In this document: positions 719-53,583 of the stretch, in pieces | Numbering within the stretch: position 1 is the stretch's first letter | How the letters are laid out: each line of letters starts with the position of its first letter | Origin: Candidatus Oxydemutatoraceae bacterium | GTDB taxonomy: Bacteria > Pseudomonadota > Gammaproteobacteria > Poriferisulfidales > Oxydemutatoraceae | Reading direction: 5' to 3' | DNA: 64,000 bases | NCBI GenBank assembly: GCA_965220085.1 | Contig: CBDCOZ010000003.1 | Span: 1,152,001-1,216,000 of the forward strand | The notes under the pieces: generated by a model | Database searches by the model: none | What the model was told of the DNA's origin: nothing | Seen by the model: only the letters and a program-made list of their open reading frames with translations | Made by a program: the position numbers and the translations under genes

Positions 719-2056
719 ATGAAAACCGATGCGGGATTATTTGAAACCGGGCGCACAGGCGAAGAACCACTCGCCGCCCGGATGCGCCCGCAAACGCTCG
801 AAGACTTTTGTGGGCAGCAACACCTGCTCGCTCCCGACAAACCGCTGTATCGCGTAATCCACAGCGGACGACCGCATTCAATGATCTTTTGGGGGCCGCC
901 CGGAACCGGCAAAACCACACTCGCCCGTTTGATTGGCAACCGTTGCGATGCTGACTTGATTGCAATCTCAGCGGTATTTGCCGGAGTCAAAGATATCCAC
1001 CGCGCGGTTGAACAGGCGCGCGCCGCCCCGCGCCGTTGCATCCTGTTCGTTGACGAAGTACACCGCTTTAACAAAGCCCAGCAAGATGCCTTCCTGCCCG
1101 AAGTCGAAAGCGGGCTTTTGACCTTCATTGGCGCGACGACCGAGAACCCGTCATTTGAATTGAACAACGCGCTGCTGTCCCGTGTTCGGGTCTATGTACT
1201 GAAGCGGTTGCAACACAAAGACCTGCTGCATTTAATTGCACGTGCTTTGGAGCACGATGCCGAGCTCGCCGCCGCCCGCTTGGATGTGCCCGACGATTGT
1301 CGCGAGTTGATTGCAGATGCGGCGGATGGTGATGCGCGCAAAGCGCTCAACCTGCTTGAGATTTGCGCCGGTCTCGCGCTCAGCGAAGCGGAGCAAGGGC
1401 AGGGTGCGAAGGTTGATATTGACACCGTGCGTTTTGCGGTCGGTGATCGCGTGCGTGGTTTTGATCGTCAGGGCGATATGTTCTACGACCAGATATCGGC
1501 ACTGCACAAATCAATCCGCGGCAGCGACCCCGATGCCGCATTGTACTGGTTTGCACGGATGCTGGACGGCGGCTGTGACCCGCTGTACATCGCACGCCGT
1601 CTCGTCCGGATCGCTTCTGAAGACATTGGCAATGCCGATACCCACGCATGGACTGTCGCACTCAACGCATGGCAGACCTACGAGCGCCTCGGCAGCCCCG
1701 AAGGAGACCTCGCAGTTGCACATGCGGTTGTCTATCTTGCCTGCACATATAAGAGCAATGCGGTTTATAAGGCCTTCAATGCGGTGATGAAGGACGTTAA
1801 AGACAGCGACAGCTTGCCGGTGCCCATGCATCTGCGCAATGCCCCGACCCGCCTGATGAAAGTGCTCGGACACGGAGAAGGTTACCGTTATGCGCACAAC
1901 GAGTCCGAAGCGTTTGCCGCCGGCGAAACTTACTTTCCCGAAGAGCTTGCCGGGCGCACCTATTACGAACCGCTGGCACAAGGGCGCGAGACCGGCATCA
2001 AAGAACGTTTAGAGCACTTCAGAGAACTGAACCGCAAAGCCCGCGCTGTTAAATAG
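719..2056 (+). CDS. rarA: Replication-associated recombination protein A (AAA+ ATPase, MgsA/RarA)
   Basis: PLAARMRP, Walker A GPPGTGKTT, DEVHRFNKAQQD, GATTENPSF, SALHKSIRGSDPDAALYW, VPMHLRNAPT. Confidence 0.96.
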   Translation: MKTDAGLFETGRTGEEPLAARMRPQTLEDFCGQQHLLAPDKPLYRVIHSGRPHSMIFWGPPGTGKTTLARLIGNRCDADLIAISAVFAGVKDIHRAVEQARAAPRRCILFVDEVHRFNKAQQDAFLPEVESGLLTFIGATTENPSFELNNALLSRVRVYVLKRLQHKDLLHLIARALEHDAELAAARLDVPDDCRELIADAADGDARKALNLLEICAGLALSEAEQGQGAKVDIDTVRFAVGDRVRGFDRQGDMFYDQISALHKSIRGSDPDAALYWFARMLDGGCDPLYIARRLVRIASEDIGNADTHAWTVALNAWQTYERLGSPEGDLAVAHAVVYLACTYKSNAVYKAFNAVMKDVKDSDSLPVPMHLRNAPTRLMKVLGHGEGYRYAHNESEAFAAGETYFPEELAGRTYYEPLAQGRETGIKERLEHFRELNRKARAVK

Positions 2057-3604
2057 TTATATTTTTACTGATGTTGTGATAGGCATCGTTGTGGCTTGTC
2101 AATTTATCGGTTAATATGAATTTTAAATATATTCATATTGCTGGGGAGGAGACAATTATGAAAATAAATTCTTTTGAGGCCAGGCACAGGGCAAGTCTTA
2201 CTTATCTTTTATTACTTCTTGTTTTCATATCAGCATCCATATCAGGTTGTACCTTTCCGCAAGCATATCACACAGTAACCCCTGACGGTAAGTGCAATGA
2301 CGAAGATGATTGCAGACGCTACTATCGTAAATACGCAGGATATGATTTGGCATTTGCTGAGTACACTGATTTCGGTAATGCTTATGACAATAAGAGAATA
2401 AATCGTATTATTAAAAAAATAGAGGAACACGCATATGGGGAAGGGGTTGTACTGGTTACTTTCATTCATGGGTGGAATCATAATGCAGATGAAGATGATT
2501 CACATTTCAAGGAATTTCATGAACTGTTAAAGAAGGTAAGTTCGAACGGTGAACTTCTAGCTGGGCGCCGGTTAGTCGGGCTGTATATAGGGTGGAGGGG
2601 GCAGTCTCTTTCCCTTTTTCCCTTTAAATATCTCAGTTTTTGGGACCGGGAAAGTGCAGCAAAATCTGTAGGTAAGGGTGTTTCAAAGCTTTTGGTGAAA
2701 CTGGACTCGGAGTTGGACATAGCAAATAAGCGTAGGACAACAAAGAATGCATCTATAACGTTTGCTCATAGTTTTGGTGCTCTTATGGCAGTTGAAGCCA
2801 TGGCTGAGGTATTGACTGAGGAGGTTGAGAGTACTACTTCTGAAATGAATGGTATAGGAGATGCTGTATTTCTATTGAATCCTGCGGTTGAAGCTAATCG
2901 AATACTCCATTTGTTTGAGAGTGTATTGAGCAATAAAAACCTTAAAACACAATATAATCTCCCTCTATTAGTTTCAATTAGCACAGATTCTGATTGGGCA
3001 ACACATTCTACTTTCTGGTTGGGAAAACTTTTTAGTCAGTTTATTTTCTGGAATCCAGAAGAGCTCCCCAGAGGCTATTCCACTAATAATATATCTGAAT
3101 ATGAGTTATCTAGAACGGCATTAGGAAATTTTGAGCCCTTTTTAACACATCGGCTGACACTGTTGCCTAATAATGACAACTCTAATATCAGAATAGAATT
3201 CCGTAAACCTTGCTGTAATTGTGAGGAACGCAAAGATTCTCAGGTGCATTCATATTGGGAAGACCCCCGTCGAGGTTCGTATTGGGAGTGTAGGGATACA
3301 TACCCTTTGTATTTTATAAAGACGGACGAAAATATCATGACTGGTCATAATGATATCTTTAATGATTCCTTTGTTACGTTCCTTCTGGCTATTCTTAATG
3401 ATGCTCTATATATACGTAATTCTCAGCGCTGGTCGTCCTTTGGTCAAAAGAGCTCAGATAGTAGAACGAGCAAGGGCTGTTCGCTAGAAGAGGTATCATT
3501 ACTAGCTTCATTAAGACTGGCTAAGGGTGAGGAGCAGTTTCAAAAATGTTTTGATGAGCGAATAAAAATGACTAAGGAAGAACTGAACCGCAAAGCCCGC
3601 GCTG
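2023..3604 (+). repeat. 26-bp direct repeat AGAACTGAACCGCAAAGCCCGCGCTG at 2023-2048 and 3579-3604
   Basis: Exact match read in both places; encodes ELNRKARA at the end of both rarA and the next ORF. Confidence 0.9.
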
Positions 3605-3612
3605 ACGATTAA
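2158..3612 (+). CDS. Putative lipoprotein, alpha/beta-hydrolase fold; AT-rich, probably acquired
   Basis: SD GGAGGAG before ATG 2158; lipobox-like SISGC; FIHGWNHNA and AHSFG nucleophile-elbow-like motifs. Confidence 0.6.
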   Translation: MKINSFEARHRASLTYLLLLLVFISASISGCTFPQAYHTVTPDGKCNDEDDCRRYYRKYAGYDLAFAEYTDFGNAYDNKRINRIIKKIEEHAYGEGVVLVTFIHGWNHNADEDDSHFKEFHELLKKVSSNGELLAGRRLVGLYIGWRGQSLSLFPFKYLSFWDRESAAKSVGKGVSKLLVKLDSELDIANKRRTTKNASITFAHSFGALMAVEAMAEVLTEEVESTTSEMNGIGDAVFLLNPAVEANRILHLFESVLSNKNLKTQYNLPLLVSISTDSDWATHSTFWLGKLFSQFIFWNPEELPRGYSTNNISEYELSRTALGNFEPFLTHRLTLLPNNDNSNIRIEFRKPCCNCEERKDSQVHSYWEDPRRGSYWECRDTYPLYFIKTDENIMTGHNDIFNDSFVTFLLAILNDALYIRNSQRWSSFGQKSSDSRTSKGCSLEEVSLLASLRLAKGEEQFQKCFDERIKMTKEELNRKARADD

Positions 3613-3628
3613 AAAGCAGTACCCGATA

Positions 3629-3662
3629 AAAAAGGGGCTCACCATTTGATGAGCCCCTTCGT
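3629..3662. terminator. Intrinsic terminator between convergent genes
   Basis: AAGGGGCTCA...TGAGCCCCTT hairpin with a flanking A-run. Confidence 0.8.
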
Positions 3663-3684
3663 TGCATACATTTAAGTATGTTGT

Positions 3685-4575
3685 TTAGAACGCATACTCC
3701 AGATTGATACCAACCCACGACTTATCGTCCAGATTCGCAGCTTCCTCTTCGGCTTCTTCGGCCTCATCAAGGTCACCTGCGGCTCTGGCTTCATCGGCTT
3801 CTGCAAGCTCATCGCGGCGTTGCCGACGGATGTCCTCACCGGCAAATACATGTCCGGCGTGAACGGTAACATACAGAGATCTGGTTACGGGCATAAACAT
3901 TTCCATACCGACTTGGTAGTGGTTAACCCCGTCGTACTCTTCGGTCACGAAGTCGTTGTCAAGCGCAACCAACGCGTAAGGGGTTATCGTAATATCATCG
4001 GCATGTATCTCACGGCTGAGTGCAAACACAGAGGCATAGCCGTTTTCCTCAAGGTCGTAAGTCACCTCAAGAGCGGCGGTCATATCCATCGGCAGGCACT
4101 CCTCACAAGCGAGTTCAACCTCAAGCTCGTGACCGTCATGGCCGTCTTCCTCGGCAGCTTTGCCGCCAAAGGTAAGGTAGGTATAAGCGACTTCAAGCTC
4201 AATCTCGCCTTCGGAATCTTCGCCCCATTCAATGTCCCACTCAATCTCTTTTCCAATAGAGAAGTTTGTTTCGTTGGCATTTGCCCCGTCACTTTGTCCG
4301 CTCCAGACACCGGCAAAAAAGCCGTTGTACTCGGCAACGAATTCGGTGGTGAACAGACCTTCACCGGCAAAAGCTTCTTCCTCTCTGCCTTCTTCGTCAT
4401 CAACATATTTTGATTGCCAACTGGCACTGGCACTGAAAGCAACATCGGATAAATGTCCGCTGCCACCATGGTCATCAGCAAAAGCTGTTTGCGTAAGTGT
4501 TAGTACCGCAAAACATGCGACTGAATACAACCATAAGCATGGCTTATCTTTTTCGTAGTCATTATATTTCTCCAT
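3685..4575 (-). CDS. Acidic outer-membrane beta-barrel protein
   Basis: Signal peptide (TAFA/DD), alternating amphipathic strands, C-terminal VGINLEYAF. Confidence 0.65.
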   Translation of the reverse strand: MEKYNDYEKDKPCLWLYSVACFAVLTLTQTAFADDHGGSGHLSDVAFSASASWQSKYVDDEEGREEEAFAGEGLFTTEFVAEYNGFFAGVWSGQSDGANANETNFSIGKEIEWDIEWGEDSEGEIELEVAYTYLTFGGKAAEEDGHDGHELEVELACEECLPMDMTAALEVTYDLEENGYASVFALSREIHADDITITPYALVALDNDFVTEEYDGVNHYQVGMEMFMPVTRSLYVTVHAGHVFAGEDIRRQRRDELAEADEARAAGDLDEAEEAEEEAANLDDKSWVGINLEYAF

Positions 4576-4872: not shown

Positions 4873-5516
4873 TCGCTATCCAACTTTTTGAGATGGGGGC
4901 TGTGGTCTTCTGGCCGCAGTCGTTTTTTTACAACTGAATAATAGCCAAGGAATCGGAAAGTGTGATGCTTTCCGGTTTTATCAATTCACAAAAAATAAAG
5001 TCAAATTATTGTTTACGCAAAATAATCTTAAACATCTTTGAGATTGCTTAAGGTTATATGGTCAAGCAATTAAGTGCATATGGTGGATGCCTTGGCAGCA
5101 GAAGGCGATGAAGGACGTGGTAGTCTGCGATATGCTTCGGGGAGCTGACAAACGAGCTTTGATCCGGAGATTTCCGAATGGGGAAACCCGCCCGCTCCGG
5201 CGGGCATTTGCACCTGAATACATAGGGTGTAAAAGCAAACCTGGAGAACTGAAACATCTAAGTATCCAGAGGAAAAGAAATCAATTGAGATTCCCTTAGT
5301 AGCGGCGAGCGAACGGGGAACAGCCTTGCGCTCTTTAGCATTTTGTCTAGTAAAACGGTTTGGAAAGACCGGCCATAGTGGGTGATAGCCCCGTATATGA
5401 AAGACAGCTTGTGGAACTAAGTGCGCGACAAGTAGGGCGGGACACGTGAAATCCTGTTTGAACATGGGGGGACCATCCTCTAAGGCTAAATACTAACTGC
5501 TGACCGATAGTGAACC

Positions 5517-5547
<31 letters not shown>

Positions 5548-6230
5548 GGAAGGGGAGTGAAATAGTACCTGAAACCGTATGCATACAAGCAGTGGGAGCC
5601 GACTTCGGTTGGTGACCGCGTACCTTTTGTATAATGGGTCAGTGACTTGTTTTCAGTGGCAAGCTTAACTCCGAATATGAGGGAGGCGTAGGGAAACCGA
5701 GTCTTAAATGGGCGTCTAGTCGCTGGGAGCAGACCCGAAACCGGGCGATCTAGCCATGGCCAGGGTGAAGGTAAGGTAACACTTACTGGAGGCCCGAACC
5801 CACCTATGTTGAAAAATGGGGGGATGAGCTGTGGCTAGGAGTGAAAGGCTAAACAAGCCCGGAGATAGCTGGTTCTCCCCGAAATCTATTTAGGTAGAGC
5901 CTTGTGTTATTCACTTCAGGGGGTAGAGCACTGTTATGGCTAGGGGGTCGTCAAGACTTACCAAACCATGGCAAACTCCGAATACCTGAAAGTGCTATCA
6001 CAGGAGACACACGGCGGGTGCTAAGGTCCGTCGTGGAAAGGGAAACAGCCCAGACCGTCAGCTAAGGTCCTTAAATTATGGCTCAGTGGGAAACGATGTG
6101 GGAAGGCATAGACAGCTAGGAGGTTGGCTTAGAAGCAGCCATCCTTTAAAGAAAGCGTAATAGCTCACTAGTCGAGTCGGCCCGCGCGGAAAATGTAACG
6201 GGGCTCAAGCCATATACCGAAGCTACGGCT

Positions 6231-6469
6231 ACAGAAGGCAGACTTAATTTCATTACACTTATTTAATAGGAGGTAATACTATGGCAAAACATCCAAAGAG
6301 TGCGCCAAAAAATGCACCATCTAAAAACCCTGGTAAACCATCAGGGGGAGGACGGGGTAACAATCCCCCGCGCCAAAATCCTAATAAAAAGTAACATATG
6401 TGCTGCCAGAAGTGGTTTTCTAATTACTTCTGGTTAGCCATGCAATGTGAAATTAAGTCTGTCTTCTGT
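6231..6469 (+). other. 23S rRNA intervening sequence (IVS) at helix 45
   Basis: About 240 AT-rich nt replace the helix-45 loop between CGAAGCTACGGC and GGGTAGGGGAGCG; closed by a 22-bp stem ACAGAAGGCAGACTTAATTTCA / TGAAATTAAGTCTGTCTTCTGT (one G-U pair). Confidence 0.93.
6281..6394 (+). CDS. IVS-encoded 37-aa basic peptide MAKHPKSAPKNAPSKNPGKPSGGGRGNNPPRQNPNKK
   Basis: Perfect SD AGGAGGT at 6268-6274, ATG 6281, TAA 6392-6394, followed by a hairpin; below the ORF-track cutoff. Confidence 0.7.
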   Translation: MAKHPKSAPKNAPSKNPGKPSGGGRGNNPPRQNPNKK

Positions 6470-7096
6470 GGGGTAGGGGAGCGTTCTGTACGTCGCTGAA
6501 GGTGTGCTGTAAGGCATGCTGGAGACATCAGAAGTGAGAATGCTGACATGAGTAACGATAATGCGGGTGCGAAACCCGCACGCCGAAAACCCAAGGTTTC
6601 CTGTGCAACGTTAATCGGCGCAGGGTGAGTCGGTCCCTAAGGCGAGGTCGAAAGGCGTAGTCGATGGGAAACAGGTTAATATTCCTGTACTTCGCATTAT
6701 TGCGATGGGGAGACGGAGAAGGCTAGGTCATCCGGGCGATGGTTGTCCCGGTGCAAGTAAGTAGGGAGTGCTCTTTGGAAAATCCGGGAGCGCAATTCCG
6801 AGATACGATGCGGAGTTCCTTTTGGAGCGAAGTGACCGGTGCCATGCTTCCAGGAAAATCCTCTAAGCTTCAGATAATGCGGAACCGTACCGCAAACCGA
6901 CACAGGTGGGTAGGGAGAGAATCCTAAGGCGCTTGAGATAACTCGGGTGAAGGAACTAGGCAAAATAGCACCGTAACTTCGGGAGAAGGTGTGCCAATTC
7001 GGGTGAATGGACTTGCTCCAGGAGCTTGGGTTGGTTGCAATAACCAGGTGGCTGCGACTGTTTACTAAAAACACAGCACTCTGCTAACTCGCAAGA

Positions 7097-7135
<39 letters not shown>

Positions 7136-7178
7136 TAAATGATGGGGTTAGCTTCGGCGAAGCTCCGGATTGAAGCCT

Positions 7179-7262
<84 letters not shown>

Positions 7263-7524
7263 CGATGGCCATACTGTCTCCACCCGAGACTCAGTGAAAT
7301 TGAAATCGCTGTTAAGATGCAGCGTCCCCACGGCTAGACGGAAAGACCCCGTGAACCTTTACTACAGCTTTACACTGAACTTTGGACATATCTGTGTAGG
7401 ATAGGTGGGAGGCTTTGAAGCCGAGACGTCAGTTTCGGCGGAGCCAACCTTGAAATACCACCCTGATATGCTCGGAGTTCTAACCCAGACCCGTTATCCG
7501 GGCCGGGAACAATGTATGGTGGGT

Positions 7525-7566
<42 letters not shown>

Positions 7567-7690
7567 TACAAAGGTGTCCTGAGCACGGACGGAAATCGTG
7601 CGGTCAGTATAAAGGCATAAGGACGCTTGACTGCGAGACAGACACGTCGAGCAGGTGCGAAAGCAGGTCTTAGTGATCCGGTGGTTCTGC

Positions 7691-7744
<54 letters not shown>

Positions 7745-7773
7745 ACTGCCCAAGAGTTCATATCGACGGCAGT

Positions 7774-7851
<78 letters not shown>

Positions 7852-8221
7852 TGGTACGCGAGCTGGGTTTAGAACGTCGTGAGACAGTTCGGTCCCTATC
7901 TACCGTGGGCGTTTGAGACTTGAAGGAAGCTGCTCCTAGTACGAGAGGACCGGAGTGGACGTACCTCTGGTGTTCCGGTTGTCACGCCAGTGGCATTGCC
8001 GGGTAGCTATGTATGGACAGGATAACTGCTGAAAGCATCTAAGCGGGAAGCCTGACCTGAGATGAGGTCTCACCGGGGCTTCGGCCCCCTGAAGAACCCT
8101 TGAAGAAGACGAGGTTGATAGGCTGGGTGTGGAAGCGCAGTAATGCGTGTAGCTAACCAGTACTAATTGTTCGTGAGGCTTGACCTATAACACTTAAGCA
8201 AGTTTTGGAAGCAAGTTTATG

Positions 8222-8615
8222 GCACGCAAACAACACTCAGTTGTTTGCGGATTGTTTATGGTGCGCAAACACTCATATGCACACAAACAGTACTCAACTG
8301 TTTGTGGGTTATTAATTGTTTGCGGACTGTTAATGGTTTGCTGATTGTTTAAGGTGAGTCAAGTAACATGATTTGACTTCGTGAACTGGCTATACAGTTG
8401 TGTTTGAAGCCGTTGTGCAATTTTGCACAACGGCTTTTTTATTATTAAGCTTCATCATTGCGCATAGTTCCGCCTTCCCAAACGCCTTCCGACTATCCCT
8501 GCGTATGCACACAAACAACACTCAGTTGTTTGCGGACTGTTAATTGTTTGTGGGTTATTAATTGTTTGCAAATTATTAGTTGTTTGCGGGACGTTAATAG
8601 TCTGTAGGTTGTTTA
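8222..8615. repeat. CAAACAAC-hairpin plus degenerate ~18-bp TTGTTTGCGG..TTAA repeats
   Basis: Hairpins (G/A)CAAACA(A/G)...TGTTTG at about 8226, 8283 and 8512, followed by 18-mer runs; reverse copy at 32645-32693. Confidence 0.7.
8408..8441 (+). terminator. Intrinsic terminator after 23S; no 5S gene precedes it
   Basis: AGCCGTTGTGCAA-TT-TTGCACAACGGCT followed by a T-run. Confidence 0.85.
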
Positions 8616-52018: not shown

Positions 52019-52137
52019 TGCCTGGCGGCTATAGAGCACTGGTACCACCCGATCCCATTCCGAACTCGGAAGTGAAACGGTGCATCGCCGATGGTAGTGT
52101 GGGGTCTCCCCATGCGAGAGTAGGACACTGCCAGGCG
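52019..52137 (+). rRNA. rrf: 5S ribosomal RNA, unlinked from 23S
   Basis: TGCCTGGCGGC...CCCATTCCGAACTCGGAAGTGAAACG...GCCGATGGTAGTGTGGGGTCTCCCCATGCGAGAGTAGG..ACTGCCAGGC. Confidence 0.98.
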
Positions 52138-52924: not shown

Positions 52925-53583
52925 TGCCCGACTTAAAAGACTTGCTCCCGGCGGAGTTTTTTAAGACCCCCCAATTCAATACGGCGATTACCCACCAGAG
53001 CGCGGGTTTTCCTAACAACGAACGGATGGAATTTCTGGGCGATGCCGTATTGCAGCTTGCCATCAGCGAAACGCTCTACCTCTCGAGCGCAAAAGACGAA
53101 GGGTATCTGACAAAGTTTCGCGCCTATCTGGTATGCAAGGACACGCTGTCCGAGTTGGCGCAGGAATGTCGGCTGGGCGATCTGATCAAGCTCGGCCCCG
53201 GCGAGAACCGAGACAACATCACGAAATCTATTCTGGGCAATGCGTTTGAAGCGATTATTGCCGCGGTGTATCTGGCGCACGGTTGGGATACGGTGCGAGG
53301 ATTTATCGAGACGGTTTATGCGAGCCGTCTGGAGCACATGCCGACCTTGGAAAAACTCAAGGATGCCAAAACAAGATTGCAGGAGTATTTGCAATCGCTG
53401 GGACACGCCTTGCCGGTCTATGCGCTGACAAAGAGCGGCCCCGGCAACGCGCCTGTGTTTGAGGCGCGGTGCAGCATCGACGAGTTGGATGTCGTGACCC
53501 GCGGGCGCGGAGCGACCAGACGCGCCGCCGAGCAGGAAGCGGCTGTCCGCGCGCTGGAGTTGTTGCAAGCCGGACTGTCGTGA
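52924..53583 (+). CDS. rnc: Ribonuclease III
   Basis: NERMEFLGDAVL, FEAIIAA, DAKTRLQE dsRBD. Confidence 0.96.
   Translation: MPDLKDLLPAEFFKTPQFNTAITHQSAGFPNNERMEFLGDAVLQLAISETLYLSSAKDEGYLTKFRAYLVCKDTLSELAQECRLGDLIKLGPGENRDNITKSILGNAFEAIIAAVYLAHGWDTVRGFIETVYASRLEHMPTLEKLKDAKTRLQEYLQSLGHALPVYALTKSGPGNAPVFEARCSIDELDVVTRGRGATRRAAEQEAAVRALELLQAGLS

Follow-up and report, generated by a model that had tools for sequence, protein, structure and literature searches.

A small gene of a widespread peptide family within a helix-45 intervening sequence of a gammaproteobacterial 23S rRNA gene

How does a short open reading frame (ORF) with a consensus ribosome-binding site come to lie inside a ribosomal RNA (rRNA) gene, and could it be expressed from there? 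The question is raised by a 64,000-nucleotide stretch of the genome of a Candidatus Oxydemutatoraceae bacterium (contig CBDCOZ010000003.1, positions 1,152,001 to 1,216,000 of the forward strand; hereafter the window, with positions counted from its first nucleotide), in which the sole 23S rRNA gene contains an extra segment at positions 6231-6469. On balance, we consider it probable that this segment is an intervening sequence (IVS) gained by horizontal transfer and located in helix 45 of the 23S rRNA, that its cargo is a complete small-gene cassette and that RNase III may release the segment as a potential mini-mRNA. IVSs are usually viewed as neutral or selfish spacers, and to our knowledge S23p is their only recurrent protein cargo; a complete and strongly signalled gene of another conserved family is unusual cargo.

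The insert at helix 45

The 23S rRNA gene (positions 5060-8187, + strand) was identified as a complete bacterial large-subunit rRNA (Rfam RF02541, 2885 bits, model positions 1-2925), and its best match was to Gammaproteobacteria (85.8%). The gene exceeded the Rfam model length by approximately 200 nt, and alignment with the annotated E. coli 23S rRNA placed all of the extra sequence at one site. At this site, window positions ~6229-6470, comprising the 239-nt insert (6231-6469), stood in for the E. coli hairpin at ~1164-1185, which we take to be helix 45. The ends of the insert formed a 22-nt inverted repeat with 95% complementarity (5' arm, 6231-6252; 3' arm, 6448-6469; both on the + strand), and in the RNA fold these arms lengthened into a 25-bp closing stem, a putative RNase III substrate. 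The fold of the 251-nt RNA was highly stable (ΔG = -95.7 kcal/mol, z = -8.76), and 0/200 dinucleotide shuffles folded equally well. A second hairpin lay after the stop codon of the ORF (6402-6437, + strand; core 6406-6413/6426-6433, CCAGAAGT/ACTTCTGG, inverted repeat I5), where the fold showed an extended stem; this hairpin had no U-tract, and a terminator scan gave no call there. The results bore out a first-pass annotation of this DNA, which had described a 22-bp stem extending helix 45 and enclosing AGGAGGT, a 6-nt spacer and ATG, a sense-strand ORF of 37 amino acids and a 3' hairpin.

The position agrees with PMC4990558, in which helix 45 is named as the insertion site of other IVSs. The insert was present in one copy in the 2.49-Mb genome, and it matched no intron model, the only Rfam matches at the gathering score being large-subunit and 5S rRNAs. 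Location at helix 45 of the 23S rRNA, complementary arms with a long stable stem and sporadic occurrence (see below) were thus all found, as in helix-45-type IVSs. These results support the assignment of the insert as an IVS of the helix-45 type that is closed by a long stem.

The encoded peptide and its family

Within the insert, a Shine-Dalgarno (SD) sequence, AGGAGGT (6268-6274, + strand), was followed by a 6-nt spacer and an ATG at 6281, which opens a 37-codon ORF with its stop codon (6281-6394, + strand; taken from the list of ORFs with translations). All 7 nt of the SD pair with the 16S 3' end ACCTCCT, and AGGAGGT-N4-8-ATG sites numbered 26 in the whole 2.49-Mb genome with both strands counted. 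The peptide contains 7 K, 2 R, 8 P, 6 N and 5 G, no acidic residue and no hydrophobic stretch, and because of this composition it is predicted to be basic, disordered and cytoplasmic. Searches of the ORF product against Pfam and NCBIfam returned 0 families at E <= 10. This result and the length of 37 aa ruled out S23p, a four-helix bundle of ~120-150 aa, and the distinction that the first-pass annotation had drawn between the two products therefore stood.

We searched 1.84 billion representative proteins with the ORF peptide by phmmer and obtained one match (E = 4.9e-4, 69% identity), a 52-aa protein carrying the core of the peptide in two copies. With this 52-aa protein as the query, 150 small proteins were recovered at E <= 1, and the 50 of them that were inspected shared a near-invariant N-x-P-S-x-T-G-x-x-S-G-G-G-R-G-N-N-P-P, followed by K/R. 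The corresponding core of the window ORF occupies codons 11-30 (6311-6370, + strand; NAPSKNPGKPSGGGRGNNPP). In an alignment of 32 rows (A1), one of which is the window peptide itself, the window peptide kept 12/12 invariant columns (N11, P13, S14, G18, S21, G22, R25, G26, N27, N28, P29 and P30), and the 20-residue core of a Ramlibacter ORF (L040) was identical to that of the window ORF. Small size, an N-terminal MAK start, a K/R-rich C-terminus and the invariant core were common to the window ORF and the family.

A pattern scan of one-genome-per-species contigs yielded 104 relatives, which by record title belong to Beta- and Gammaproteobacteria, Bacteroidota, Chloroflexota/Dehalococcoidia, Myxococcota, Planctomycetes, Verrucomicrobia, Campylobacterota and Clostridiales, and the same scan of metagenome contigs yielded at least 157. 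Members were labelled 'hypothetical protein', for instance those of Acidovorax soli and Lautropia sp.; by tblastn, the family also matched records titled Massilia glaciei and Ramlibacter sp. When the family profile was run against this genome, the window ORF scored E = 3.6e-11 and no second true copy was found. The stretch SGGGRGNNP was written in 120 distinct nucleotide codings, among which every synonymous codon appeared, Ser and Arg each being drawn from both of their codon boxes, and the third-position entropy was 0.9-2.0 bits; the rows had been chosen by amino-acid pattern, so only the third codon positions are informative. Since all synonymous codons are in use, the constraint acts at the level of the protein rather than on a motif in the RNA or DNA.

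These results make it virtually certain that the ORF is a true member of a widespread small-protein family, and by this descent it is a real gene; the homologue search proposed in the first-pass annotation thus strengthened the case for it. The family has no Pfam or NCBIfam model, and a search of NCBIfam with eight members returned nothing. Only unnamed 'hypothetical protein' clusters were found in the ESM Atlas (best score, 0.91), and peptide-substring searches of open papers, with supplements outside the search, found no literature on the motif. As a small-protein or tail motif shared by many phyla and some viral contigs, the family is of interest in itself, and so strongly conserved a core implies that its binding partner is an important one.

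Could the insert be an assembly artefact, produced by a chimeric join, or the ORF a product of chance in AT-rich sequence? The source sample is a mixed community with many other bacterial 23S types, a search of public runs found the IVS sequence in a single run and in no RNA run, and a Hi-C sample gave no coverage of the insert. However, a separately built 408-nt contig from a public run covers positions 6153-6560 across both junctions with 0 differences, the helix-45 loop is replaced exactly with the stem restored, and the family-profile score given above rules out a chance ORF by homology. The 408-nt contig counts against a mis-join, although its run is probably the source sample and hence not independent. 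We give this explanation next to no weight. One of the other 23S types in the sample has a 28-nt helix-45 hairpin instead of the insert.

Acquisition, processing and possible expression

We searched 40 relatives from the same family and order, of which 26 gave a 23S match and 14 gave none. Between the shared flanking anchors, 24 relatives had a hairpin of 14-24 nt versus 243 nt here, and a further genome (G019) had a 19-nt gap at the insert site by BLAST coordinates. In G016 the site reads as N (L028 positions 1744-3063, ~1320 bases, starting inside the 23S just before helix 45), as it also does in G038. The comparison of ORF and SD among the IVSs of relatives, which the first-pass annotation had envisaged, thus met no IVS in the 25 relatives that could be read at helix 45. 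Searches with the IVS DNA found no relative among plasmids and none among the 399 other scored genomes of the class, where the hits were of chance size only (<=38 nt, E >= 4e-4). The family itself was patchily distributed, being present in 7/399 other genomes of the class and 0/52 other genomes of the order. The GC content was 0.40 for the IVS and 0.46 for the ORF, versus 0.557 for the genome, and the GC content at third codon positions (GC3) of the ORF was 0.29, whereas 1157 long ORFs of the genome averaged 0.648 (sd 0.096), with only 2/1157 below 0.30. Taken together, the foreign composition and the fact that relatives lack the insert as well as the family indicate that the IVS was acquired horizontally and has not been ameliorated.

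In the proposed mechanism, the insert would be transcribed from the rRNA promoter within pre-23S rRNA, and RNase III would cut the 22-25-bp stem, leaving a fragmented 23S rRNA of ~1.17 kb and ~1.72 kb held together. The cut would free an RNA of ~200-235 nt with its ends still paired, carrying the SD, the ORF and the hairpin, and ribosomes would bind this RNA at the SD and translate it. Because the peptide would be translated from a freed piece of rRNA, its output would track rRNA synthesis. Near-perfect duplexes of this length (22-25 bp) are typical targets of RNase III. The window also contains an intact rnc gene for RNase III (52963-53562, + strand; TIGR02191, 190.4 bits, above the cut-off) in an open frame of 233 aa. 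The IVSs named as tested in PMC4990558, those of Salmonella, Leptospira, many Alphaproteobacteria and Coxiella, were all cleaved by RNase III. By analogy with these, the insert is very probably excised. An uncut insert would instead be an rRNA expansion segment on the 50S surface at helix 45, with the ORF irrelevant or read from the precursor only. Helix 45 does tolerate extensions according to PMC4990558, and cleavage in this bacterium is deduced from the stem, the enzyme and the tested cases; the same three points nevertheless make an uncut insert very unlikely.

A more serious alternative is that the insert is a neutral hitch-hiker, a recent foreign fragment that happens to hold a small gene, whose RNA is excised and degraded with no meaningful peptide and whose sole effect is fragmentation of the 23S rRNA. 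We regard this as possible rather than probable. Several results favour it or weigh against a released and translated mini-mRNA. All evidence on the insert comes from the sequence of one genome, the only one in which it is known. The foreign composition is unameliorated, so the intact frame may reflect a mere recent arrival and does not count as evidence that this host has selected for it. When the fold of the IVS by itself was predicted, the initial 4 nt of the SD and the UG of the AUG were mostly paired (unpaired probability, 0.01-0.12). A promoter scan found no promoter-like site within the IVS, which makes any expression wholly dependent on the rRNA transcript. Moreover, blastn with the two halves of the window 23S, the 5S and the genome's 16S as queries found 23S or 16S sequence beside 0/168 other family loci (80 from genomes, 80 from metagenomes and 8 class-wide), with positive controls that worked. 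These 168 loci are ordinary chromosomal or mobile-island sites, only the window copy lies inside an rRNA gene, and residence in rRNA is thus not a property of the family. Finally, the excised IVS RNA of Coxiella is rapidly degraded and its ORF is untranslated in vivo, as stated in PMC4990558.

On the other side, the cassette in the window lacks nothing: its 7-nt SD fits the consensus and is ideally spaced from an ATG, all invariant residues of the family are present, and a 3' hairpin follows. In addition, the Coxiella ORF has a poor SD according to PMC4990558, so that precedent is not directly transferable. For the reading as an acquired IVS with a releasable cassette, we keep its parts separate: there is perhaps an even chance that production of the peptide reaches a detectable level, and it is doubtful that the peptide benefits this host. 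Should the ORF be translated, this would be the first time that a conserved protein is expressed from an rRNA piece excised in a bacterium, and its output would be tied to ribosome production.

The closest known systems are the helix-45 IVSs with S23p ORFs, which PMC4990558 describes for Coxiella burnetii, Leptospira, Xanthomonas and Brucella. The insert resembles the Coxiella-type IVS of that account in its helix-45 site, complementary arms, single-copy 23S gene, apparent horizontal acquisition and sense-strand ORF, and the fragments reported for Coxiella match those expected here (~1.2 kb and ~1.7 kb). It differs in length (~240 nt versus 428-444 nt there), in cargo (a 37-aa disordered basic peptide of another family versus a four-helix bundle of ~120-150 aa) and in translation signal (a consensus 7-mer SD versus a decaying ORF with a poor SD). 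What sets the insert apart from S23p-type coding IVSs is the cargo and the quality of the translation signals.

We know of no protein gene in the IVSs of Salmonella, Yersinia, Campylobacter, Proteus and Providencia, and the insert differs from these Salmonella-type IVSs in that a complete translation cassette lies within it. A pentapeptide mini-gene in E. coli 23S rRNA, reportedly active only from rRNA fragments, encodes the 'E-peptide' of Tenson and Mankin. It is similar in having an SD and a short ORF on the 23S sense strand that can be translated if the segment is accessible, but it is said to have only 5 codons, to lie in mature rRNA and to have no family outside rRNA, whereas the insert that contains the present ORF is excisable, and homologues of this ORF number in the hundreds. 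For the five genera named above, PMC4990558 lists IVSs at helices 45 and 25, which resemble the insert in their extended stem-loop in place of a small terminal loop and in their sporadic occurrence among relatives; they are excised by RNase III without religation, as the insert presumably would be. Protein-coding insertions in rRNA genes are also described for CPR bacteria, where, according to PMC11270868, their ORFs are largely homing endonucleases in intron-like elements. These are likewise inserts in rRNA genes that carry ORFs, but the insert here is a plain stem-closed IVS with no endonuclease and no non-rRNA Rfam match.

Family loci, tail fusions and the rRNA genes of the window

The many metagenomic members located on ~3.2-kb contigs had raised the suspicion that the family is generally IVS-borne; this was rejected by the count of 0/168, a test to which the ~3.2-kb contigs and nine viral loci did not belong. 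The same count argues against a general link between the peptide and the ribosome, and neither the ribosome-associated nor the host-directed role suggested in the first-pass annotation found support. One of the 168 loci was rRNA-adjacent: in G064 (L209, 1186-1590), a degenerate relative, MGKSKGSSDRLKNMPSTTGKLPGRRRGNNPPYSSSG, begins 73 nt downstream of a 5S rRNA gene, and a 116-nt piece resembling an internal part of 23S adjoins the 5' end of that 5S.

We examined the neighbourhoods of family genes, with ORFs called by a crude longest-ORF heuristic. No conserved partner gene emerged, the largest neighbour cluster covering 7/80 loci, all in related Chloroflexota; of 131 neighbouring ORFs, no more than three (3/131) shared a Pfam family, the most frequent one being HTH_3. 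An origin as a hairpin-flanked mobile cassette, a miniature inverted-repeat transposable element (MITE) or an integron-like element was also unsupported, since exact inverted repeats on either side of 149 other family genes reached at most 6-12 nt. Neighbours included integrases, DNA methylases and ArdC-like and AbiEii-like proteins, which suggests that family loci lie in variable islands.

The core also occurred as a tail on longer proteins. A metagenomic protein of 325 aa (P0155) was identified as a prokaryotic viperin (PADLOC pVip, E = 2.9e-76) with a terminal core, KNAPSKTGKPSGKGRGNNPPKKK, and was the one protein among 10 longer motif-bearing proteins (1/10) to match a PADLOC defence model. 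In P0161, which has an HNH_5 domain (Pfam), and in several uncharacterised proteins of 200-240 aa, the core formed the tail after an acidic linker. Proteins of 95 aa, and others of ~166-170 aa with two tandem copies, had domains weakly matching ThiS, SAMP2 and UBX-like families, and some longer core-bearing proteins had SMP-like repeats. Five of the nine viral loci (IMG/VR L221, L222, L224, L225 and L226; ~3500-4100) encoded one or two tandem domains of ~75 aa with weak ThiS/SAMP2/UBX-like matches, followed by a C-terminal core. These ubiquitin-like fusions lay in syntenic arrays of marine viral contigs, with a PhoH-like gene nearby in both contigs scanned (L224 and L226), where PHROGs matched the genes beside the fusions to PhoH-like and unknown families only. 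By sequence, the viral fusion may represent a ubiquitin-like protein of phages to which a conserved tail is attached.

Because a near-invariant short core recurs as the terminal tail of unrelated enzymes, our guess is that the peptide acts as an adaptor or tail, with a highly conserved surface on a protein or nucleic acid as its binding site. A further reading, which we think unlikely, is that the IVS serves as an expression platform, in which a mobile small-protein gene in helix 45 would supply one stem-capped mini-mRNA per 23S transcript, with supply tied to ribosome synthesis. The family core would then serve conflict or stress systems as a docking peptide of universal use, and its conserved cellular target might be the ribosome or a nucleic acid.

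The rRNA genes of this genome were dispersed. The 5S rRNA gene (52021-52136, Rfam) is 44 kb from the 23S gene, and the 16S gene lies on the same contig (C3) at ~1.849 Mb, ~690 kb from the 23S; with these distances the rRNA genes are unlinked, and all three are single-copy. Rfam and RNA gene scans found no 16S and no tRNA gene within the window. The 5S rRNA gene is followed on the same strand, after ~830 nt, by the rnc gene. Upstream of the 23S gene, a terminator-like hairpin (4898-4921) and a promoter-like site (4985-5012) were found, and the 23S appears to be a separate transcription unit. The 5' flank and first bases of the 23S (approximately 5038-5067, + strand) pair with ~8178-8208, the 3' end and its flank, in a classical 23S processing stem (co-fold of 4990-5075 with 8170-8270, -61.7 kcal/mol). 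Downstream of the gene there are two similar 10-bp hairpins (8225-8249 and 8282-8306; CGCAAACAAC.../CACAAACAG...) and a 14-bp terminator-like hairpin at 8406-8437.

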